Assembly: GCA_963789955.1 (NCBI GenBank)
Contig: CAWBMV010000006.1
Coordinates: forward strand, 416,001 to 480,000
Direction: 5' to 3'
Origin: an uncultured Candidatus Rokubacteria bacterium
GTDB taxonomy: Bacteria > Methylomirabilota > Methylomirabilia > Rokubacteriales > CSP1-6
Length of the DNA stretch: 64,000 nucleotides
Of this stretch, positions 42,534-63,968 are shown in pieces; the stretch's first letter is position 1, and each line of letters opens with the position of its first letter. Under the pieces are notes generated by a model. That model had not been told where the DNA came from. It did no database searches and saw only the letters and a list, made by a program, of their open reading frames with translations. The position numbers and the translations under genes were made by a program.

Positions 42534-43266
42534 GTGCGGATCGACGTTGCGCCGACCGCTGATGCGGTGGTCCCTTCCGATCTCTCCGGTGTCACGGCGC
42601 TGGTGATCGACGTGCTGCGCGCCTCGACGACGATCATCACGGCGCTCGCGAACGGCTGCGACGCGATCGTCCCGGTCGCCGAGCCGCTCGAGGCCCGGCG
42701 CCGAGCGCTGGCGATGCCGAACGGTGGCGCGCTGGCCGCCGGCGAGCGCCAGGGCGAGCCGATCCCCGGCTTCGACTTCAGCAATTCGCCCGTGGAATTC
42801 GAGAGCCCGCGCGTCCGCGGCATGACGGTGTACTTCACGACGAGCAACGGCACGCGCGCGCTCCTGGCCGCGAGGGCCGCGCACGCGATCGGCGTCGCGG
42901 CGCTCGTCAACGTCTCCGCCGCGGCGGCGTGGGCCGCGGACGCCGGGCGCGATGTCGCCGTCGTGTGCGCGGGCTCGCACGGCTCGCGGTCACTCGAGGA
43001 TTGGACGTGCGCCGGGCTCCTGGTCGACCGCCTCCTCGCGGCAGGTTCCGGCCGCCGTGCTCACCGACGCCGCCCGCGACGCGCTCGAGACCGGCCGCCG
43101 CTATGCCGCGGACGTGGGCCGCCTCAAGCAGGACGCGCCGTGGGCGCGCCGACTGATCGCCGCGGGGCGCGCCGACGACGTCGACGCGTGCCTGCGTCTG
43201 GACACGACGAAGCTCGTGCCGCGGTACGTCCCGAACGTTGACAAGATCGTGGGCGACCACCGATAA
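42534..43266 (+). CDS. comB: 2-phosphosulfolactate phosphatase family protein (frameshift near 43045)
   Basis: VIDVLRASTT, GER, NSP, TTSNGT, SLEDW.CAG. Confidence 0.88.
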
Positions 43267-45471: not shown

Positions 45472-46471
45472 ATGCCGGAGCTGCGCAAGGATCCGGTCGT
45501 CGGCCGCTGGGTCATCATCTCGACCGAACGCGCGCGGCGCCCATCCGACTTCGCCGCCGAGCCGGTGCGTCCGCGCCAGACCGACGTGCGCATTCTGCGA
45601 AGGCCACGAGCACCAGACGCCGCCGGAGATTCTCGCGGGCCGCCCGCCCGACGGTCGGCCGAACGGGCCGGGCTGGACCTATCGCGTCGTGCCGAACAAA
45701 TATCCGGCGCTCCGGATCGAGGGCGAGCTGGAGCCCGCGGGCGAAGGCCTCTTCGACCGGATGAACGGCGTCGGCGCGCACGAGGTCGTCATCGAGACGC
45801 CGCAGCACGGCGCGTCGCTCGCCGGGCTCTCGGTCGACGCGGTCGCCGACGTGCTCTTCGCGTTCCGCGAGCGCATGCTCGATCTGAAGAAGGATCCGCG
45901 GTTCGCCTACGTCCTCGTGTTCAAGAATCACGGCGAGGCCGCCGGCGCCTCGCTGGAGCATCCGCACTCGCAGCTCATCGCCACGCCGATCATCCCGATC
46001 ATGGTGTCCGAGGAGCTCGCGGGCTCGGCCCAGTACTACGACCTGAAGGAGCGCTGTGTCTGGTGTGACATGGTTCGCCAGGAGCGGCGGGGCAGGGGGC
46101 GGCTGATCGTCGAGTCCCAGGATTTCGCGGCGCTGGCGCCGTTCGCGCCGCGGTTTCCGTTCGAGACGTGGATACTCCCCACGCATCATCGGGCCGCGTT
46201 CGAAGAATCGACCGAAGAGGAGCTGCGCGGAGCGGCGGCGATCCTCGGCGAGGTGCTTCGCCGGATGGACCGCGTGCTCGGCGAGCCGGCGTTCAACTTC
46301 ATGCTGCACACGGCGCCGTTCCGCGAGGCGCAGCTGGAATCGTTTCACTGGCATCTCGAGGTGATTCCGAAGCTCACGCGGGTCGCCGGCTTCGAGTGGG
46401 GCAGCGGCTTCTTCATCAACCCGGTACCTCCCGAGGATGCGGCCGACGCTCTGCGGGCGGGCCCGGGCTGA
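45472..46471 (+). CDS. galT: Galactose-1-phosphate uridylyltransferase family protein (frameshift near 45585)
   Basis: [32 protein letters not shown]. Confidence 0.9.
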
Positions 46472-46729: not shown

Positions 46730-47101
46730 ATGGCCGAATTGATCAAGCGGGTCGGTCCGCCCAAGGCCACCGACCTCAAGGCTGATGAGTTCACGTGGTC
46801 CATCCAGCTCAGCGCCGCGCCGTCGCGCGAATGGTCGCGACTCTTCTCCGAGCCCGCCGAGTCGACGGTGCTCTGTCATCCGCGGCGGCTCGGCATGATG
46901 CATCAGGCGCTCGTCTTCAAATCCGACGAGGGCCACCTGCCGACCTGGGTCCAGTACATCGACAAGTGGATCGGCGGCGCGAACAAGGGCATGGAGGAGC
47001 AAGAAGAAGCCGAGCGCCAGCGCAAGGTGAAGGCGCTCGCCGAAGAGGAAGAGCGGCAGAAGCGCATCCGCGAGGTGAACGAGAAGGTCAAGAATCTCTG
47101 A
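46730..47101 (+). CDS. Hypothetical protein (123 aa, charged coiled-coil C-terminus)
   Basis: GGAG RBS; typical codon bias; globular-looking N-terminus plus E/K/R-rich helix. Confidence 0.75.
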   Translation: MAELIKRVGPPKATDLKADEFTWSIQLSAAPSREWSRLFSEPAESTVLCHPRRLGMMHQALVFKSDEGHLPTWVQYIDKWIGGANKGMEEQEEAERQRKVKALAEEEERQKRIREVNEKVKNL

Positions 47102-47116
47102 GCCCGTCGGTCGACC

Positions 47117-47203
47117 GGGGGCGTGGTGGAACTGGGATACACAGAAGACTTAAAATCTTCTGTCCGCAAGGACTTGCAGGTTCGAATCCTGCCGCCCCTA
47201 CCA
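47117..47203 (+). tRNA. tRNA-Leu(TAA)
   Basis: gggggcgtggtggaa...gaaga-ctTAAaa-tcttc, long variable arm gtccgcaaggac, ttcgaatc, cgcccctaCCA. Confidence 0.95.
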
Positions 47204-47832
47204 CCACCGATTCGGTCACCCGCGGACATCGACGTCGAGCAGCGAGCTCCTACAGCTATCTGTTCGGCGTCTACCTCGGCGACGGCTACATCAGCCGCAC
47301 CCCTCGGACATATCGCCTCGAAATCTCGCTCCATACGTCGGCCAGGAGCTCGCGATTGCACGTGTCGCGGGTGCCGTCAGCGCACTTCGGCCCGACCGGC
47401 CCGTCGGATTCCGGCGCCGCGGGGTTGTCACGGTCGTCAACGCGTACTGGAACACCTGGCCGCATACTGTTTCCGCAGCACGGTGCCGGACGAAAGCATC
47501 ATCGACCGATCGTCTTGACGCCCTGGCAGCGCCGTATCGTGGAGCAACATCCGGTCGAGTTCGTTCGGGGATGCATCGACTCGGACGGCTGCAGACACCG
47601 ACGCATCGTAGCTGGGCGAAGGACTATCCTGCTTGACTCATTCGATCGAGCGAATCATTCGCTCGACATCCTGGAGGTGTTCATCTGGGCCTGCGGCCTG
47701 ATCGGGCTGCGACCGCGGCGCGCCAATCGGGTCACCGTTTCGCTGGCGCGGCGCAGCGATGTCGCGACGCTCGACCATCTCTTCGGGTCAGCCGATGGGC
47801 TCGAGTCGCATCCAAGCCTAGCCCGCTCATAA
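47204..47832 (+). CDS. Double-motif LAGLIDADG-like (homing endonuclease fold) protein; start unclear, several indels (possibly a pseudogene)
   Basis: YLFGVYLGDG (47257-47286) and FVRGCIDSDG (47560-47589); NAYWNTWPH/LFPQHGAGRKHHRPIVL between them. Confidence 0.72.
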
Positions 47833-47853: not shown

Positions 47854-48660
47854 GTGCTGCCCCTCGTCATGAGCTCGCCTGGCGCGATCGCGTTCCAGGT
47901 CGGTCCGATCGTCATCCGCTGGTACGGCATCCTCATGGCCACCGCGATCGTCGTGGGGCTCTGGCTCGGCTATCGTCAGGCCAAGCGCGACGGTCTTCCG
48001 GCCGACGACATCATCAGCGCCGGGCAATGGGCGATCCTGGCGGGTCTCGCCGGCGCGCGGATCTACGAGGTCATCTTCAACTGGGACTACTACGGCCGCT
48101 ATCCGTCGAAGATCATCGCGGTGTGGGAAGGCGGCCTCGCCATGCACGGCGGCCTCATCGTCGGGCCGCTCGTCGGTGCGTACCTCGCGTACAAGTGGCG
48201 GCTGCCCATCTTGAAGGGGCTCGACATCGCGGCGCCGTCGATGGTGCTCGGGCAGGCCATCGGTCGCTGGGGAAACTTCTTCAACGAGGAAGCGTTCGGG
48301 CGGCCGACCGATCTGCCGTGGAAGCTCTACATCTCGCCCGAGCATCGCCCGCTCGGATATGCCCAGTTCGAGTACTTCCATCCGACGTTCCTGTACGAGT
48401 CGCTGTGGGACTTGGCGGTCTTCCTCCTGCTCGTGGGAGTGCTGCGCTCGAGGCTCAAGACGCGCCCGGGTGCCCTGTTCTTCGCCTACGTCGGTCTCTA
48501 TTCGATCGGGCGGTTCGCGATCGAGGCCCTCAGGCTGGACAGCTTCTGGCTCGGCTCGGTCCGCGTCCCGCAGCTCGCGAGCCTCGTCGGCGTGCTCGTC
48601 GCGCTCGCGGGCATGGCCTGGGCGAACCGCCGCGCCAGCGCATCGCCCGCCACCACCTGA
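47854..48660 (+). CDS. lgt: Prolipoprotein diacylglyceryl transferase
   Basis: IRWYG, WEGGLAMHGG, GRWGNFFNEE, HPTFLYE. Confidence 0.96.
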   Translation: MLPLVMSSPGAIAFQVGPIVIRWYGILMATAIVVGLWLGYRQAKRDGLPADDIISAGQWAILAGLAGARIYEVIFNWDYYGRYPSKIIAVWEGGLAMHGGLIVGPLVGAYLAYKWRLPILKGLDIAAPSMVLGQAIGRWGNFFNEEAFGRPTDLPWKLYISPEHRPLGYAQFEYFHPTFLYESLWDLAVFLLLVGVLRSRLKTRPGALFFAYVGLYSIGRFAIEALRLDSFWLGSVRVPQLASLVGVLVALAGMAWANRRASASPATT

Positions 48661-54784: not shown

Positions 54785-56204
54785 ATGAGCCGGACCGATA
54801 CGGCGGTCGTGGGAGCGGCGCGACGTAAGACGAAGGCGCTCGCAGTCCCGCTGGCGGGGCTCGGCGCCGCGCTGTTCCTGCCTCCGCTGCTCCCTGGTCT
54901 TCCGCTCGCCGGCCAGCGGGCGCTGATCGTCACCCTGATCACGATCCTGCTCTGGACCGGCGAGATCCTGGCGCCGGGTGTCGCCGCGCTCCTGAGCGTC
55001 ACCCTGCTCGCGCTCAGCGGCGCCACGGCAAGCCTGCGGGACGCGCTGCAGGGCTTCGCCAACCCCGTGCCCTTCTTCCTGATCGGCGTGCTGACGATGG
55101 GCGCCGCCGTCGTGCGGAGCGGGCTCGCCGAGCGGCTGGCCCGGACCATCCTCGAGCGCGCGCGGGGGTCGGAGCCTCACGGTCTATCTCCAGCTGGTCC
55201 TCTCGTTCCCCGTCCTGACCTTCCTGCTGCCGTCGGCGACGACACGGTCCGGGATCCTGATCCACATCTATGACGAGGTCTTTACGCTCGGCCGGGTCCC
55301 GCGGGGCGCGGACGTGGCCAAGGCGGTGATGCTCGCGCTCTCGTCGATCAATCGCCTCGCGTCCACCTCGCTCTTGACCGGCGGGATCACGCCGGTGATG
55401 AGCGCCGCGATCATCGGGGGCATGTCGTGGACCGGCTGGTTCACCTTGATGGCAGTGCCGTACTACGCGATTCTGCTGCTGGGCGGCGTCCTCACGTACG
55501 CGCTCTATCGCCGCGGGTTCTCGGCGGGGCTGCCGACCCCCGAGCCCGCGCGCCGGCGTCCGATCTCGGGGCCCGAGTGGCGAACGATCGCGATCATCCT
55601 GAGCGCCTCGGCCCTCTGGCTCACGGACGGCGTGCATCATCTCGATCCGGCGATCCCGGCGCTGCTCGCGTTCGCCGCGCTGCTCACGCCGGGCCTGGGC
55701 CCGCTCGTCTGGGCGGACCTCGAGCGCGGAGTCGGCTGGGCGAACTTCTACGTCATCGCCGCGTCGATCTCGCTGGCCCACGCGCTGGTGGCGAGCGGCG
55801 CGGCGCCGTGGCTCGGTCGGCTCCTGGTCGGCGGCTTGCCGGCATTCGGCGACAGCGCGTTGGCGGTCGTCGTGCTCCTGATGCTCGGCGCGACGCTCTT
55901 GCGAGTCATCGTCCCCAACATCTCCGGCTTTCTCGCGCTGGCGTTGCCGATCGCGATGTCCGTGGGGCGCGAAGCCGGGGTCAACCCGCTCGTGTGCGCC
56001 CTGGTCGTGATGATGACCGGGGACGCGGTCGTCTACTACCCGGCGCAGAGCTCGTCGGCGCTCGTCATCTACGAGCGCGGCCACGTGTCGGCGGCCGAGA
56101 TGCTGAAGTTCGGACTGTGGATGACCGTGGTCGGCTGGGTGGCGATCCTGGTGGTCGCGCTGCCCTGGTGGGCCCTGGTCGGCGAACCCCTGCGGCCCCG
56201 CTGA
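54785..56204 (+). CDS. SLC13/DASS family anion permease (frameshift near 55165)
   Basis: LQGFANP, RSGLAERLA, LLPSATTR, LLTGGITP; many TM helices. Confidence 0.82.
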
Positions 56205-56217
56205 AGATTCGCCGCTC

Positions 56218-56291
56218 CGAGCGCGGGCTTTGCCCGCGCGAGCCGAATCCTGGGGGGAGGTTCGGAAGGGGCGGCGAAGCCCCCCTCCGAG
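56218..56291. repeat. REP-like tandem hairpins between convergent genes (possible bidirectional terminator)
   Basis: cgcgggc-ttt-gcccgcg and tcggaaggggc-ggcgaa-gccccctccga. Confidence 0.6.
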
Positions 56292-57740
56292 TCAAAGGGG
56301 GGCGGGGAGCTCCGACTTGCCCATCAGATAGAGATCGACCCCGCGCGCGGCGGATCGACCCTCGGCGATCGCCCAGACGATCAGCGACTGCCCGCGCTGC
56401 ATGTCGCCGCAGGCGAACACGCCGGGCACGCTGGTCATCCAGTTCGGGTCGCGCCAGACGTTGCCGCGCTCGGTGAGCCGGACACCGAAGTCGGTCAGCA
56501 TCCCCGGGCGCTCGGGCCCGAGAAAACCCATCGCGAGCAGGACCAGATCGGCGTCGAGCTTGAACTCGCTGCCGGCGAACCGGCTTGAACTCCAGCCGGC
56601 CGCCCTCGCGGACCATCTCGACCTTGACCGCCTCGAGCGCCTTCACGCGGCCGCGCGTCGTCGCCGATGAAGCGCTGCGTCGAGACCGCGTAGACGCGCT
56701 CGCCGCCTTCCTCGTGGGCGCCGGACACGCGGAAGATGTTCGGCCACTGCGGCCACGGATTGTCGGCCGCGCGCTGGTCGGGCGGTCGCGGCAGCAGCTC
56801 GAACTGGTGGACGGAGGCCGCGCCCTGGCGATGCACCGTGCCCAGGCAGTCGGCGCCGGTGTCGCCGCCGCCGATGATGACGACGTGCTTGCCCTGCGCG
56901 CTGATGAACCGCTCGTCGGGGACGTGGTCGCCCTCGCAGCGCCGGTTCTGCAGCGTCAGGTACTCCATGGCGAAGTGGACGCCGTCGAGCTCGCGTCCGG
57001 GAATCGAGAGATCGCGCGGCCAGCACGCGCCGCCGGCCAGCACCACCGCGTCGAAGTCGCGCCGCAGGCTCCCGACCGGCACGTTGACCCCGACGTGGGC
57101 GCCCGTCCGGAAGCGCACGCCGTCCTTCTCCATCAGCTGGAGCCGGCGGTCGACGAAGCGCTTCTCCATCTTGAACTCGGGGATGCCGTAGCGCAGGAGG
57201 CCGCCGATCCGGTCGTCGCGCTCGAACACGGTCACCAGGTGGCCGGCGCGGTTGAGCTGCTCGGCTGCGGCGAGACCGGCCGGGCCGGAGCCGACCACCG
57301 CGACCTGCTTGCCGGTGCGCGCGGCCGGCGGCTGCGACGCCGACCCAGCCCTCGTCGAACGCGCGCTCGACGATCGCGATCTCGACGCCCTTGATCGTCA
57401 CCGGATCGTCGTTGATGCCGAGCACGCAGGCGCCCTCGCACGGTGCCGGACAGAGGCGCCCCGTCCACTCCGGGAAGTTGTTCGTCGCGTGCAGGCGATC
57501 GATCGCCTCGCGCCACTGGTTGCGGTACACGAGGTCGTTCCAGTCGGGGATGATGTTGCCGAGCGGGCAGCCCTGATGGCAGAAGGGAATGCCGCAGTCC
57601 ATGCACCGCGCGGCCTGCTTCGTCAGCTCCTCGACCGGGTAGGGGAGGTAGTACTCCTTCCAGTCGCGGACGCGCTCGGCCACCGGACGCGCGGGCGGCT
57701 TCTTCCGCTTGATCTCGAGGAAGCCGGTGACCTTACCCAC
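56292..57740 (-). CDS. gltD: Glutamate synthase small subunit (frameshifted)
   Basis: [64 protein letters not shown]. Confidence 0.95.
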
Positions 57741-60700
57741 CGCTGGTCCCGACGAGCTCGGCGAAGGTCGGCGGGCGCCCCTCAGCACGCGCCTGCGCCT
57801 CGGCGAGGAGCACGCGCTTGTAGTCCCTCGGCATGATCTTCACGAACCGCGGCTGCATGTCGATCCAGTCGCGGAGGATGCCCGCCGCGTAGGTCGATCC
57901 GGTGTACTCGACGTGGCGCTGGATCAGGTCGCGCACGAGCGCGATCTCCTCGGGCTGATCGAGACGCTCGATATCGACCATGCCGAGGTTACACCGGCGC
58001 TTGAAGTCACCGTCCAGGTCGAGCACGTACGCGATGCCCCCGGACATGCCGGCCGCGAAGTTGCGGCCGGTGCGTCCCAGGACGACGACCCGACCGCCGG
58101 TCATGTACTCGCAGGCATGATCGCCGACGCCCTCGACGACCGCGTGGACCCCGCTGTTGCGCACGCAGAAGCGCTCGCCGGCAACGCCGCGCACGTAGGC
58201 CTCGCCGCTCGTCGCGCCGTAGAGCGCGACGTTGCCGATGATGATGTTGTCCTCGGGCACGAACGTGCTCGCGCGGGGCGGAAAGACCGTGAGCTTGCCG
58301 CCCGAGAGCCCCTTGCCCCAGTAGTCGTTGGCGTCGCCCTCGAGGGTGAAGGTGACACCCCGCGGGCACGAACGCGCCGAAGCTCTGGCCCGCGGATCCG
58401 GTGAAGTGGACGCGGATCGTGTCGTCCGGCAGCCCGTCGCCGCCCCACCGCTTGCGTGATGTGGTAGCCGAGCGTGGTGCCGACGGTACGGTTGACGTTG
58501 CGGATCGGCAGCCGTAGCTCGACCGGCTTCTTGTGCTCGACGGCCTCGCGGCACGCCGGGATGATCGTGGTGTTGTCGAGCGAGCTCTCGAGCGCGTGAT
58601 CCTGGGGCCGCACGCACCGGCGCGCGACGTCCGCCGGCATGTCCGGCAGGTAGAGGATCGACGACAGGTCGAGCCCGCGAGCCTTCCAGTGCTCGAGCGC
58701 CGGCTTGAAGTCGAGCCGGTCCGCGCGACCGATCATCTCGTCCATCGTCCGGAAGCCGAGGGCCGCCATGTGCTCGCGGACTTCCTGGGCGAGGAACCGG
58801 AAGAAGTTCACGACGTAGTCGGCCTGGCCGGCGAAGCGCTTGCGAAGCTCCGGATCCTGCGTGGCGATGCCGACGGGGCAGGTGTTGAGGTGGCAGACCC
58901 GCATCATGATGCAGCCGAGCACGACCAGCGGCGCGGTCGAGAAGCCGTACTCTTCGCCGCCGAGCAGCGCGGCGATGACGACGTCGCGCCCGGTCTTCAT
59001 CTGGCCGTCGACCTGGACCACGATGCGATCGCGGAGCTTGTTCAGCACCAGGACCTGTTGCGTCTCGGCGAGCCCGAGCTCCCACGGGACGCCGCCGTGC
59101 TTGATCGACGTGAGCGGCGAGGCGCCGGTGCCGCCGTCGTGGCCGGAGATCAGCACGACGTCGGAGAACGCCTTCGCCACGCCGGCCGCGACCGTGCCCA
59201 CGCCGATCTCGGCGACCAGCTTCACGTGCACGCGCGCCTCGGGGTTGGCGTTCTTCAGATCGTGGATGAGCTGCTTGATGTCCTCGATCGAGTAGATGTC
59301 GTGGTGCGGGGGCGGCGAGATGAGCTGCACGCCCGGCGTCGCGAACCGCACCTTCGCGATCCACGGATAGACCTTGCCGCCGGGAAGCTGGCCGCCCTCG
59401 CCGGGCTTGGCGCCCTGGGCCATCTTGATCTGGAGATCCGTCGCGTTGACGAGGTACTCGCTGGTGACGCCGAAGCGCCCGGACGCCACCTGCTTGACCG
59501 CGCTGCGCCGCCAGTCGCCGTTGGGATCACGCTGGTAGCGCGCCGCGTCCTCGCCGCCCTCGCCGGTGTTCGAGCGCCCGCCGATACGGTTCATCGCGAT
59601 GGCCAGGGTCTCGTGCGCCTCCTGGCTGATGGAGCCGTAGGACATCGCGCCGGTGGCGAAGCGCTTGAGGATCGACTCGACCGACTCGACCTCTTCGATC
59701 GGCACCGGCGCCGCGCCCGGCCGGAGCTCGATGAGCCCGCGCAAGGTCGCCAGGCGCTTGCTCTGGTCGTCGCAGAGACGCGTGAAGTCCTTGAACTGCG
59801 CGTAGCTCCCGCTGCGCGTGGCGTGCTGGAGCTTGGCGATCATGTCGGGATTGACCATGTGGTGCTCGCCGTCGCGCCGCCACTGGTACTCGCCGCCCCA
59901 GTCGAGCTCCGCGCCGATGGGCCGCTCCGGGAACGCGTGCTCGTGGCGCCGCCGCACCTCGTCCGCGATCACGTCGAGCCCGATGCCGGACACGCGCGAG
60001 ACGGTTCCGGTGAAGTAGCGATGCACCAGATCGCCGTTGAGGCCGATGGCCTCGAAGATCTGGGCGCCGGTGTAGCTCTGCAGCGTGGAGATCCCCATCT
60101 TGGCCATGACCTTGAGGATTCCCTTGTTCAGGGCCTTGATGTAGTTCTTGATCGCCTTCGCGCGATCGACGCCGGGCAGCAGCCCCTCGTTGATCATGTC
60201 GTCGATCGTCTCGAAGGCGACCCACGGATTGACCGCGCCGGCGCCGTAGCCGATCAGGAGGCAGAGGTGATGCACCTCGCGCGCGTCGCCGGTCTCGATC
60301 ACGAGCCCGCAGCGGGTGCGCTCCCCGCGCCGGACCAGGTGGTGGTGCATCGACGCCGTGGCCAGGAGGCTCGGGATGGCCGCCGTCTTACGGCTGATGC
60401 CGCGGTCCGAGAGGATGATGACGTTGTAGCCTTCGGCGATCGCCTCGCTCGCGCGCCGCTGGAGCAGCTCGAGGGTCCGCTCGAGGCCCGCCGCGCCGTC
60501 GGCCACCGCGTAGAGCATGGGCAGGGTGAGCGCCTTGAAGCCGCGCTCGGAGACGTGGGCGAGCTTGGCCAGCTCCTCGTTCGTGATGACCGGGTCCTTC
60601 AGCACGATCTGGCGGCAGGACTCGGGCTCCGGCCACGAGGAGGTTGCGCTCCGGACCGACCGTCGACTCCATCGACGTCACCAGCTCCTCGCGGATCTGG

Positions 60701-62332
60701 TCGAGCGGCGGATTGGTCACCTGGGCGAAGAGCTGCTTGAAGTAGTCGTAGAGCGGCCGCGGCCGGTTCGAGAGCACCGCCAGCGACGTGTCGGTGCCCA
60801 TCGAGCCGATGGGCTCCTCGCCGTTCTTGGCCATCGGCCCGAGGAGGATCCGGAGATCCTCGTGCGTGTAGCCGAATGCGATCTGCCGGGTCAGCACGGT
60901 CGCGTGGTCCGGGGCCGGCACGGGATGCGCCTTGAGCTCCTCGAGATGCACGAGATTGTCCCGGAGCCAGTCGGCGTACGGATGCTCGGCGGCCAGCTGG
61001 GCCTTGATCTCCTCGTCGTCGACGATCCGCCCCTGGGCGGTGTCGACCAGGAAGATCCGCCCGGGATGCAGCCGCTCCTTCATGAGGATCGTTCTCGGCC
61101 GGAATGTCCAGCACGCCGACCTCGGAGGCCATGACGACCATGTCGTCCGTGGTGACGTAGTACCGCGACGGACGCAGTCCGTTCCGGTCGAGCACGGCGC
61201 CGATGACGGTGCCGTCGGTGAACGCGATCGACGCCGGGCCGTCCCAGGGCTCCATCAGCGACGAGTGGTACTCGTAGAACGCCCGGCGCTCCGGGCTCAT
61301 CGACTCGTGGTTCTGCCACGGCTCGGGGATCATCATGAGGATCGCGTGCGGCAGGGACCGCCCGTTCATCACGAGGAACTCGAGCACGTTGTCGAACGTC
61401 GCGGAGTCCGACAGGCCGTCGCGCGTCACCGGCAGGACCTTCTTCAGGTCGTCGCCCAGCAGCCGCCGACCGGCACAGCGCCTCGCGCGCCTTCATCCAG
61501 TTGATGTTGCCGCGCAGCGTGTTGATCTCGCCGTTGTGGGCGATGTAGCGGTACGGGTGCGCGAGCGGCCAGGACGGGAACGTGTTGGTGCTGAACCGCT
61601 GGTGCACGAGGGCCAGCGCCGATTCGAAGTCGGGATCGGTCAGATCGGGGAACATCGTCTCGATCTGGTCCGCGCGAGAGCATGCCCTTGTAGATGAGCG
61701 TGTTCGAGCTCAGGCTCGGCATGTACGCGTACTTGCTTTCCGGAATGTCGAGCGCCGCCACGGCCTTCTCGATGCGCTTGCGGATCACGTAGAGCTTGCG
61801 CTCGAAGTGGGCGTGGTCGCGCACCGCCGGCCCGCGCCCGATGAACACCTGCATGATGTGCGGCTCGACGGACAGGGCGCTGGCCCCGATCAGGTGGTCG
61901 TCGGTCGGGACCTCGCGCCAGCCGAGGAGGCGCTGGCCCTCCTCGTCGACGATGGAGTGCAGAAGGGCGCGCACGATGTCGCGTTGCTCCGCGTCGCGCG
62001 GCAGGAACACGAATCCGCAGCCGTAGTCCTTGGCGCGGCGGCAGGGGAATGCCCAGGCGCCCGCACTCGCGGCGGAGGAACTTGTCCGGAATCTGGATGA
62101 GGATGCCGGCGCCGTCCCCGGTGTTCGCCTCGCAGCCGCACGCGCCTCGATGGAGCAGGTTGATGAGGACCGCGAGCGCTCGGCGCACGATCGTGTGGGA
62201 GCGCCGCCCTTTGATGTCCACGACGAATCCGACGCCGCACGCGTCGTGCTCGTGGCTGGGGTCGTAGAGCCCCTGAGCAGGAGGCGGTCCGCGGCACGCG
62301 CTCGGTCGACGCTGAGCTTCAGCCATCTGCAT
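57733..62332 (-). CDS. gltB: Glutamate synthase large subunit (multiple frameshifts)
   Basis: [63 protein letters not shown]. Confidence 0.96.
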
Positions 62333-62398
62333 CCCCTTTTGTGAAAACAGTTGCACGATACTACAGACGAACCACACTATTAGTCACCCCCAAAAAGC

Positions 62399-62429
62399 TG
62401 GATAGTAAGTATCAGAAACTGCTTATAAT
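62399..62429. promoter_or_regulatory. Divergent gltB/LysR control region: dyads (gata-N5-tatc; tatcag-N6-cttata) and a TATAAT -10
   Basis: AT-rich; TATAAT at 62424-62429 lies 7 nt before the LysR GTG. Confidence 0.55.
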
Positions 62430-62436
62430 CTGCGCC

Positions 62437-63353
62437 GTGCATCTCGAGACCCTCCGCCTCTACTGCGACGTCGTTCGGCTCCGGAGCGTTCTCGCGCGGC
62501 GCGACGCAGAACTTCGTCTCCCAGTCGGCGGCCAGCCAGGCGATCCAGCAGCTCGAGGCCGAGCTGGGGGTCGCGCTCCTCGACCGGACCAAGCGGCCGT
62601 TCGTCGTGACGCCCGAGGGCCAGGCCTTCTACGGCGCCTGCCGGGATCTGCTCGAAGCGTGGGACAAGGCCAAGGCCGGAGGTCGCGCGCGGTGAAGGCG
62701 CGGGTCGACGGAACGGTGCGGGTGGCGGCGATCTACTCGGTCGGCCTCCACGACGTGAGCCGCCACATGCAGCGCTTCATGTCGCTCTATCCGGAAGCGC
62801 GCGTTCAGCTCGAGTGCCTGCACCCGCACAAGGTCGTCGAGGCGGTGCATCCAGGGCGAGGCCGACGTCGGGATCATGTCGTATCCGCCGGCCGAGCGCG
62901 CGCTCTCGATCGTGCCGCTCCGGTCCGAGCCGATGGCGTTCGTGTGCCATCCGAACCACCGGCTGGCGCGGCGCCGCGTGGTCACGCCCGCGGACCTCAA
63001 CGGCGAGACGTTCGTCGCCTTCGACGCCGGGTTGACGATCCGCAAGGCGATCGACCGCGCGCTCCGCCAGCACAACGTGCGGGTCAACATCGTGATGGAG
63101 TTCGACAACATCGAGACGATCAAGCAGGCGATCATCATCGCGGCGGGCGTGTCGCATTCTCCCGCGTCACACCGTGCAGAAGGAGGCGTCGATCCGCACG
63201 CTCGCCGTCGTCCCGATGGCGATCGCCGATCTCGTGCGGCCGGTCGGCCTGATCCATCGGCGCCAGAAGCCGCTGACGCCGACGGTCAGCCGGTTCATCC
63301 AGCTCCTGAAGGACGCCAGCGAAGAGCCGGCGCGCGCGACGTCGCACTCCTGA
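62437..63353 (+). CDS. LysR family regulator divergent from gltBD (frameshifted)
   Basis: MHLETLRLYCDVV, VSQSAASQAIQQLE..LG..LLDR, MEFDNIETIKQA. Confidence 0.9.
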
Positions 63354-63420
63354 GGCGGTCGGGGTCCTCGCCATTGCCGCGCTCGGACTGAGGAGTTAGG
63401 ATCGGATGCGGGGGGCAGTC

Positions 63421-63968
63421 ATGAGTGGTGAGTTCGAGGACGAGTACTCCGCGACGATCGACGAATCTCTGACGAAGACCGACGACCTGCGCGAGAGCAG
63501 CGATGCGCTCCTGAACGACACCATCGCCGTCCTGGCCCCGGCCGAGCCGCTGTGCCTCGGCGAGAGCGGCCACCGTCCACGACGCCGTTCGGACCATGCT
63601 GGCTCACCGGCAGGCCGGGGTGCTGATCACGGACGGTCAAGGGCCGGCTCGCCGGAATCTTCACCGAGCGCGACGTGCTGACGCGCGTGGTCGGCCGCGA
63701 TCTCGATGCCCGGCGAACGACGCTCGGCGAGGTGATGACGCGCAAGCCGCAGGCGCTGACCGCGAGCGACCGGGTGGCCTTCGCCATCCACTGCATGAGC
63801 GTCGCCGGCTACCGGACGATCCCGCTGGTCGACGCCGAGGGCCGGCCCATCGGCGTGGTGACCGTCAGCGACGTGGTCCGCTGGCTCGCCGGCCTGTTCC
63901 CCGAGGCGGTGCTGAACTTGAGGCCAGGTGACGCGCTCAAGCGCCCCCACGAGGTCGACGCGGGCTGA
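63421..63968 (+). CDS. CBS domain protein (frameshifted)
   Basis: LAGIFTERDVLTRV, EVMTRKP, GYRTIPLVD..GRPIGVVTVSD. Confidence 0.85.

Follow-up and report, generated by a model that had tools for sequence, protein, structure and literature searches.

Free-standing LAGLIDADG genes linked to tRNA-Leu genes in bacteria and viruses: a predicted family of homing endonucleases associated with D-arm diversity

Introduction

Among the closest described systems, SegB of the phage T4 tRNA cluster is a free-standing GIY-YIG homing endonuclease which spreads itself along with the neighbouring tRNAs by cutting the allele that lacks the gene; it is a phage-only enzyme reading the T-loop motif (PMC2330249). 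The free-standing enzymes of T4 are restrained by RNA structure at the translation start (PMC2988022). The bacterial protein WhiA, conserved across Gram-positive bacteria, combines a LAGLIDADG fold from which the acidic residues have been lost with a C-terminal HTH (PMC3384342). In Streptomyces coelicolor, a type I short-loop tRNA-Leu(CAA) is leucylated, and some Streptomyces do not have this tRNA; the part of the article available to us gives no mobile-element origin for it (PMC6614811). Lastly, mycobacterial tRNA arrays include HNH endonucleases linked to horizontally moved tRNAs, one of which is a short-loop tRNA-Leu (PMC6582537).

Here we analyzed a LAGLIDADG gene in a 64,000-nt stretch of the genome of an uncultured Candidatus Rokubacteria bacterium (the window), together with its relatives in other genomes. 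As in the case of SegB, an intron-less endonuclease gene lies by tRNA genes; unlike SegB, the present family is of the LAGLIDADG type, mostly chromosomal and leucine-specific; its genes overlap the tRNA or surround it, and are associated with hypervariability of the D-arm. It resembles the T4 seg/mob type in being a stand-alone gene close to a conserved host gene with co-converted flanks, but has no GIY-YIG or HNH domain. It has in common with I-DmoI, I-Tsp061I, TliVMA, and PI-SceI the two-motif fold of about 190 residues and both acidic residues, whereas these enzymes sit in introns or inteins and the members of the present family are unspliced and leave the tRNA whole. The nested form, where the tRNA lies inside the protein gene, also differs from the intron and intein enzymes, and most members have an additional N-terminal HTH. 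Like WhiA/DUF199, the family joins a bacterial LAGLIDADG fold to an HTH, but it departs from that group in three respects: the catalytic residues are kept, the order of the domains is reversed or the HTH absent, and the distribution is patchy, with many decaying copies. In the present family, the CAA alleles located beside the nuclease gene in Streptomyces are of both the short and the long kind, and the short alleles nested in the nuclease gene in the window's taxonomic family are TAA. The mycobacterial HNH arrays contain several tRNAs and are added to the genome, whereas in the present family a single resident tRNA seems to be replaced in place. In the literature searched, which included few subscription journals, no account was found of this family, its linkage to tRNA-Leu, the nested layout, or the D-arm footprint.

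Organization of the locus

In the window, a broken LAGLIDADG gene directly follows a tRNA-Leu(UAA) gene, and the pair lies between a small host gene and lgt. The features of this locus are as follows:

46730..47101, + strand: 123-aa host gene, left homology flank in the proposed mechanism; no Pfam, NCBIfam, or PADLOC match
47117..47203, + strand: tRNA-Leu(UAA) gene, 87 nt, long variable arm (ARAGORN, Rfam)
47126..47148, + strand: tRNA positions 10-31, covering the D-arm and the 5' side of the anticodon stem; sequence hypervariable among relatives but base pairing conserved; the nuclease recognition site is predicted to lie here, the role as a target being putative
47174..47176, + strand: TTG closing the variable arm on its 3' side; putative start codon within the tRNA, sharing the frame of motif 1 in intact relatives
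47174..47832, + strand: whole broken nuclease gene, HTH-less (type B); span from motif 1 to the stop 47257-47832, stop codon 47830-47832
47204..47256, + strand: linker from the tRNA CCA to motif 1, one base short of the relatives' frame
47257..47286, + strand: LAGLIDADG motif 1 (YLFGVYLGDG), Asp codon 47281-47283, invariant in homolog alignments
47337..47466, + strand: central part of the nuclease, frameshifted, with an insertion on either side
47560..47589, + strand: LAGLIDADG motif 2 (FVRGCIDSDG), Asp codon 47584-47586, invariant in homolog alignments
47619..47651, + strand: cluster of three insertions (net +9) scrambling a conserved strand after motif 2
47854..48660, + strand: lgt, prolipoprotein diacylglyceryl transferase (PF01790, E 7e-73), right homology flank in the proposed mechanism

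A first-pass annotation of this DNA had described a double-motif LAGLIDADG gene directly behind the tRNA, and its motifs, coordinates, and spacing (101 codons between the two Asp codons) were confirmed. It had also correctly described a GC3 lower than that of the neighbours (0.77 and 0.70 in the N- and C-terminal pieces, vs. 0.86-0.94 in six neighbouring genes), the absence of an intron or intein host (no intron family was matched in Rfam between 46400 and 48000, and the tRNA is uninterrupted), and the absence of a start codon (ATG, GTG, or TTG) in frame between the tRNA CCA and motif 1 of the window copy, the upstream frame LQVRILPPLPPPIRSPADIDVEQR beginning within the tRNA, as does the frame in use in intact relatives. 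Taken alone, the window pieces fall below the Pfam cut-off (LAGLIDADG_3, 15 bits vs. 22.5), and the assignment to the family therefore rests on the homologs and the fold. The nuclease stop codon is separated from lgt by 21 nt, and no sigma-70-type promoter was matched between 46300 and 48800.

The tRNA-Leu(TAA) at 47117-47203 is the only TAA isoacceptor found in the genome of the window, and is presumed to be the immune allele travelling with the nuclease gene. TTA codons are rare, accounting for 1 of the 2,171 codons in seven window ORFs. A tRNA-Gly and a tRNA-Cys were also placed in the window by ARAGORN and Rfam. The 123-aa gene, which is located between tRNA-Cys and tRNA-Leu and has a charged helical C-terminus, is conserved in the genus and in some related genera, and is found both with and without the nuclease gene. 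An integrative element inserted at a tRNA attachment site was considered and rejected: the 650-nt interval between the tRNA and lgt holds only the nuclease gene, the tRNA has a single match in the genome at E<=1e-8, and its 3' half is the constant part.

State of the window copy

Alignment with four intact relatives places six indels in the window copy, at about 47248 (-1), 47331-47339 (+2), 47463 (+1), 47621 (+2), 47635 (+1), and 47645-47650 (+6). Some of these breaks had been noticed in the first-pass annotation, others had escaped it; the segment QELAIARVAG...VVNAYWNTWPH, which it had recovered in part (VVNAYWNTWPH) from an alternative frame, is real, being in frame in intact homologs. Its view of the indels as correctable read errors is the less likely one. 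In comparison with G013, the assembly background amounts to 34 single-base insertions counted in 27 kb, i.e., about 0.4 per kb at 37-55 kb and about 3 per kb at 55-64 kb, whereas the nuclease copy shows six events in about 620 nt, or roughly 10 per kb, including 2- and 6-base insertions. Since this density is above the local background and most relatives are broken too, a real pseudogene is the likelier explanation: the window copy is probably a true pseudogene, to whose indels read error may contribute.

The assembly is insertion-prone, especially beyond 55 kb, and single-base insertions relative to the relatives split ordinary genes at window positions 43043, 45584, and 55169-63637. The split gene at 45472-46471 is presumably galactose-1-phosphate uridylyltransferase-like.

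Sequence, fold and selection in the protein family

Searching with the window piece yielded 1,632 proteins out of 1,922 candidates, and all the matches with a source name belong to Rokubacteria/Methylomirabilota; a profile search extended to 1,793 clusters at E<=1e-10. Most of the distant members have about 250 residues and an N-terminal HTH. Among 114 members, Pfam identified HTH_23 in 80 and LAGLIDADG_3 in 83 (E<=0.01), and no intein domain occurs among the 25 families listed, of 34, for these proteins. The AlphaFold model of an intact homolog, P0001 (pLDDT 86.7), matches I-DmoI with a Z of 15.0-15.1 and an rmsd of 2.9-3.1 over 162-166 aligned residues; an intein endonuclease (Z 15.7), WhiA (Z 15.7), and I-DmoI (about 15) are tied, and the bI3 maturase and I-AniI are also among the structural matches. 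On the basis of this model, the family is predicted to have the LAGLIDADG fold of the homing endonucleases.

At either motif, 67 of the 68 copies have retained the catalytic Asp, which is invariant in both alignments. The median dN/dS is 0.195 over 1,806 pairs drawn from these 68 copies, one of which (1/68) is the window copy with its compensating shifts; the family is under purifying selection. One copy per genome was found in the five genomes checked. The phage sequences of INPHARED and the plasmids of PLSDB gave no match to P0001, P0194, or P0207; NCBIfam and PADLOC returned weak HTH-level matches only, all below the cut-offs, with no notable PADLOC system; the ESM Atlas gave only automatically named HTH/LAGLIDADG clusters. 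In PHROGs, P0194 and the second family described below match a generic endonuclease family, and P0001 and P0098 match none.

Linkage to tRNA-Leu genes

A tRNA-Leu gene is present within 450 nt of the nuclease gene in 77 of 80 bacterial genome loci, these being the best 80 of the 586 confirmed (Actinomycetota, Chloroflexota) when ranked by likeness to one query, and in 15 of 19 strong viral loci, a number which leaves aside nine weak viral loci (L153-L161) without tRNA-Leu. The nearest tRNA is a leucine tRNA in 91 of these 99 loci, with the anticodons CAA (58), TAG (20), TAA (7), and CAG (6) but never GAG. Five geometries occur: the tRNA is either enclosed by the gene or precedes or follows it, in both cases on one strand or the other. 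Since there are four anticodons and five geometries, the constant element is the leucine tRNA gene, and not a rare codon or a shared transcript. The tie to the rare UUA codon, which the first-pass annotation had proposed, is not supported, TAA accounting for 7 of these 91 genes. Its main proposal, that of a tRNA-anchored homing endonuclease, is supported by the fold, which matches those of I-DmoI and intein enzymes, by the linkage, which includes the Actinomycetota it had mentioned, and by the existence of intact relatives.

In Streptomyces (L485-L514, L064-L133), the tRNA-Leu(CAA) is short-armed in 20 of 25 cases and long-armed in 5; both alleles occur with and without the nuclease gene, and they are interleaved on the nuclease tree.

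Nested, overlapping and relic layouts

The layouts were compared in a set of 109 loci, of which 7 had no tRNA, 16 no parsable motif 1, and 19 were duplicates. In type A, which occurs in the window's taxonomic family, an HTH domain, a 77-nt short-armed tRNA-Leu(UAA), and the nuclease are in one frame: the end of the HTH is base 1 of the tRNA, and motif 1 starts 22 nt past the CCA with no start codon in between. In many relatives, the tRNA-Leu nested in frame between the HTH domain and the nuclease measures 74-77 nt, and the frame is common to 18 of 19 distinct short-tRNA loci. In 11 of 18 nested loci, the pS/pN values were 0.65/0.28 and 0.63/0.20 in the two flanks, a protein-type pattern, and 0.11/0.07 in the tRNA part, a nucleotide-type pattern. 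The 77-nt tRNA is the only tRNA-Leu(TAA) found in five of five type A genomes (66-99% complete). Peptides resembling the tRNA translation were read by eye at the same place in 11 distant proteins, and in the model of one distant protein the tRNA-coded linker, of low confidence (pLDDT 61-65), lies between two confident domains; in non-nested relatives, an ordinary linker of similar length is found there. Nesting requires seven changes on the tree, two of which are forced by supported branches.

Type B, to which the window belongs, has a long tRNA and no HTH. The frame of the T-arm is kept in 41 of 48 distinct linkers; by length class, 10 linkers are in frame (a multiple of three) vs. 7 that are not, and several contain an ATG or GTG of their own. 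Among 45 parsed long-tRNA loci, the end of the variable arm carries TTG (25), GTG (17), or ATG (3). That the T-arm frame is kept even where variable-arm indels break the anticodon frame suggests a start at this NTG, which we propose with moderate confidence as the type B translation start. In type C, a long tRNA is followed by a peptide relic of a short one (L035, P0095, P0096, P0112, P0113).

Rare-codon autoregulation through an in-frame TTA in the anticodon loop was considered and rejected as a general function: indels in the variable arm give a TAA stop or another frame at this point, although the T-arm stays in frame (L184, L187, L191, L192, L203), TCA takes its place in the nested CAA copies, and CAA or TAG is the anticodon associated with most members. 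A nested cassette (L008) and an HTH-less one (L020) share a single locus in the G012 bin, their lgt genes being 98% identical, which may reflect either a strain mixture or a recent replacement.

Hypervariability of the D-arm in the linked tRNA

In the genus of the window, the linked TAA tRNA shows nine D-arm alleles in 13 long tRNAs (leaving aside four unrelated 77-nt tRNAs), vs. one allele in 14 CAG and one in 13 TAG tRNAs. In mycobacteria, where the linked isoacceptor is TAG, 14 genomes yielded 12 alleles of it, vs. one in 14 for CAG and one in 13 for GAG. These counts are descriptive, related genomes not being independent, and the control isoacceptors were CAG and TAG in the window's taxonomic family and CAG and GAG in mycobacteria. 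TAG is thus constant without such a neighbour and variable with one. Most of the variation falls within positions 10-31 and the bases pairing with them, and the acceptor stem is nearly constant; all the stem pairs counted and the 15-48 pair are kept, and the same segment varies whether the gene is 3' or 5' of the tRNA (two phyla). The variable stretch, of about 22 nt, would be an indirect signature of a cleavage site; a length of about 22 nt is within the size range of LAGLIDADG recognition sites.

Loci that now lack the gene, namely 16 of the 29 TAG loci of Mycobacterium and 39 loci in the window's taxonomic family, have a tRNA that is just as variable, which fits past invasion followed by loss without proving it. 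The carriers L083, L399, and L417 keep a canonical D-arm, and immunity in these cases must rest on other positions. On inspection, no clear one-to-one match was seen between D-arm alleles and the strands presumed to contact DNA.

The CAA tRNA of the window's genus, with five D-arm alleles in 13, first appeared to be an exception, but a second, distant family of HTH and two-motif LAGLIDADG proteins proved to be encoded directly 5' of this variable tRNA. This second family, whole or as a relic, was found at 15 of 21 CAA loci and none of 48 CAG/TAG loci. It is present in 63 of the 159 genomes of the taxonomic family, where it is patchy and decaying, and all 21 loci parsed (30 taken) are beside tRNA-Leu(CAA), with 19 D-arm alleles. 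Its members are about 300 aa long (L347:591-1490, L350, L351, L353, L387, L451-L480), their reading frame often runs into the tRNA, and none was found in the window's genome.

Near-identical unusual D-arm variants occur in different phyla and isoacceptors (L174, L193, and L167 vs. L059, L076, and L077; L014 vs. L080), which suggests that they may form a small set of structurally allowed escape variants.

Patchy distribution, decay and replacement

The gene is present in 28 of 251 genomes of the phylum, all belonging to one taxonomic family, and in 4 of 151 genomes of a Mycobacteriaceae sample. Of 29 TAG loci in Mycobacterium (from 30 of 66 matches), 8 have a whole copy, 5 a broken one, and 16 none; among 25 Streptomyces CAA loci (from 30 of 76 matches), 11 copies are whole and 4 broken, and no gene was found at the other 10. 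The 29 loci in the window's taxonomic family include 9 intact copies, one with Asp replaced by His, and 20 broken ones, whereas lgt is split in only 1 of 26. Genomes with no match to the gene carry a long tRNA-Leu(TAA) in 39 of the 40 regions examined; in 14 of these 39, the tRNA lies 20-95 nt before lgt, and three show visible relics. Genes of another kind, about 600-850 nt long, are often located between tRNA-Leu(TAA) and lgt in genomes without the nuclease (L242-L281).

As regards the empty alleles with which the first-pass annotation had recommended a comparison, the gene is missing from three of four sequencing runs of strains about 99% identical in the flanks, and in one of these, X1, the tRNA is identical to that of the window. 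The gene-less sister strains thus exist, but they do not provide clean, never-invaded sites: the three joins differ in their end points and one keeps the linker, which shows that the gaps are deletions.

On the gene tree, the four members of the genus with a type A layout group in a single clade (100/100), but they occupy four separate places and require four changes on the flanking-gene tree (AU p 2e-50). The gene tree rejects two pairs that the flanks support (p 2e-5 and 1e-4), one of them coming from a single bin that may hold two strains, while the pairing of the window with its nearest relative is not rejected (p 0.19). These trees show that the whole tRNA-plus-gene cassette has been replaced laterally between lineages at one locus. 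The family behaves like a selfish mobile gene in a cycle of invasion, decay, and loss.

Proposed mechanism and alternatives

We propose, with a probability of roughly 0.68, that the family consists of free-standing homing endonucleases predicted to cut the tRNA-Leu gene near the D-arm and accompanied by a presumably immune allele. A nuclease that cuts rival alleles and installs its own would explain why one tRNA is unusually variable. The cassette would arrive by horizontal transfer, be expressed, and cut the resident tRNA-Leu allele, and repair from the incoming DNA via the flanking host genes would convert the locus, so that an essential single-copy tRNA would be swapped and never lost. Leucine tRNAs are well suited to this, since LeuRS depends on the shape of the tRNA more than on the D-arm sequence; a short-armed tRNA-Leu of Streptomyces is leucylated (PMC6614811). 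LeuRS would therefore tolerate D-arm changes as long as the fold was kept, and escape alleles would be cheap, so that successive variants of the nuclease could drive the turnover of alleles. Once no sensitive allele was left, the gene would decay and be deleted, while the altered tRNA would stay; according to this scheme, the window and its sister strains are at the stage of decay and deletion. Maturation of the tRNA would cut the mRNA of the nested form and of the form starting inside the tRNA, which would limit the expression of a nuclease dangerous to its own host, much as the T4 enzymes are held back in translation (PMC2988022), and the overlap with the tRNA would hold the gene and the immune site together. 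We infer the whole of this chain, namely the cutting, the immunity, the biased inheritance, the translation start, and the expression.

A homing endonuclease might also have its site elsewhere in or beside the tRNA, for instance in the T-arm, the anticodon loop, or a flank, the D-arm variety being cargo co-converted from diverse donors. Whole tRNA types are indeed swapped along with the nuclease gene, and in phage T4 free-standing enzymes cut hundreds of bases from their own gene and co-convert the flanks (PMC2988022), and SegB recognizes a T-loop motif (PMC2330249). However, imported tRNAs would be expected to differ throughout, whereas here the acceptor stem and T-arm are near constant and positions 10-31 vary, and a T-loop target would not favour leucine tRNAs, which are the nearest in 91 of 99 loci; we regard this possibility as rather unlikely. 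A slightly smaller chance is given to the idea that the nuclease acts on RNA, in which case it would cut or bind the D-loop of those tRNA-Leu transcripts that are sensitive, the linked variant tRNA being the antidote; the element would then be of the poison-antidote kind, or a tRNase directed against phage or host. The same linkage and escape pattern would be predicted, LAGLIDADG maturases bind RNA (the bI3 maturase and I-AniI being among the structural matches), and the viral copies sit in tRNA clusters. What speaks for DNA as the substrate is that both metal-binding Asp residues and the two-domain DNA-saddle fold are kept and that most copies have a DNA-binding HTH (HTH_23 in 80 of 114); in addition, there was no notable PADLOC match, and an RNA toxin alone would not explain the replacement of the locus between lineages or the ease with which the gene is lost.

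The first-pass annotation had alternatively suggested a domesticated WhiA-like factor regulating the expression of tRNA-Leu or its processing. The tied structural match with WhiA, the combination of HTH and LAGLIDADG domains, the purifying selection, and the single copy in the five genomes checked are all compatible with a factor of this kind, which nevertheless seems very improbable to us: the acidic residues are kept (67 of 68 copies at each motif), the HTH is N-terminal or absent, and the gene is missing from most genomes, disrupted at 20 of the 29 loci, and lost by deletion from sister strains. Hardly any weight can be given, lastly, to the view that the overlap and nesting are accidents of gene calling and that a separate nuclease gene starts downstream. 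Long chance frames do arise in high-GC DNA, and the tRNA is wholly outside the ORF in many members, but there is no start between the tRNA and motif 1, a common frame is shared by all but one of the 19 distinct nested loci, selection is of the protein type on both flanks while the tRNA part is under nucleotide constraint, an ordinary linker of comparable length occupies this place in relatives without nesting, and the tRNA-coded peptide persists as a relic where the short tRNA has been lost.

The homing reading can be carried further, in a joint form to which we give even odds: a standing gene drive on tRNA-Leu, of which D-arm diversity, the spread of short arms, and a kind of inside-out intron would be the outcome. 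At least two LAGLIDADG lineages would drive on essential single-copy tRNA-Leu genes in bacterial chromosomes and phages; by cutting rival D-arm DNA and supplying an immune tRNA, they would generate D-arm diversity, and would also spread the short-armed (type I) tRNA-Leu of bacteria. In the nested form, the only UUA-reading tRNA would serve as the in-frame linker between HTH and nuclease, each transcript becoming either a tRNA or a nuclease mRNA. If this were true, intron-less homing, which is known mainly from T4-like phages, would extend to the chromosomes of bacteria from at least three phyla, and an essential tRNA would be its target as well as its cargo. Two oddities would have a possible cause, namely the single fast-evolving D-arm found in one leucine isoacceptor per lineage and the existence of bacterial short-armed tRNA-Leu. 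A functional tRNA gene translated as an interdomain linker would be an unusual layout, hidden by annotation pipelines, and the family would amount to over a thousand natural variants of a small meganuclease, each tied to a predicted immune site, which would make it easy to map their specificities.

Viral members

The nested tRNA was confirmed in two viral contigs, L134 (CAA) and L135 (TAA). A second viral scan added essentially one new type of locus. The viral matches of the second family have no tRNA nearby (four of four). In the viral contigs L147, L148, L150, and L157, a divergent HTH-less member is located directly behind tRNA-Met(CAT), and in three of the four a tRNA-Leu(TAA) lies 1.4 kb away; the members linked to tRNA-Met(CAT) possibly reflect a switch of target.
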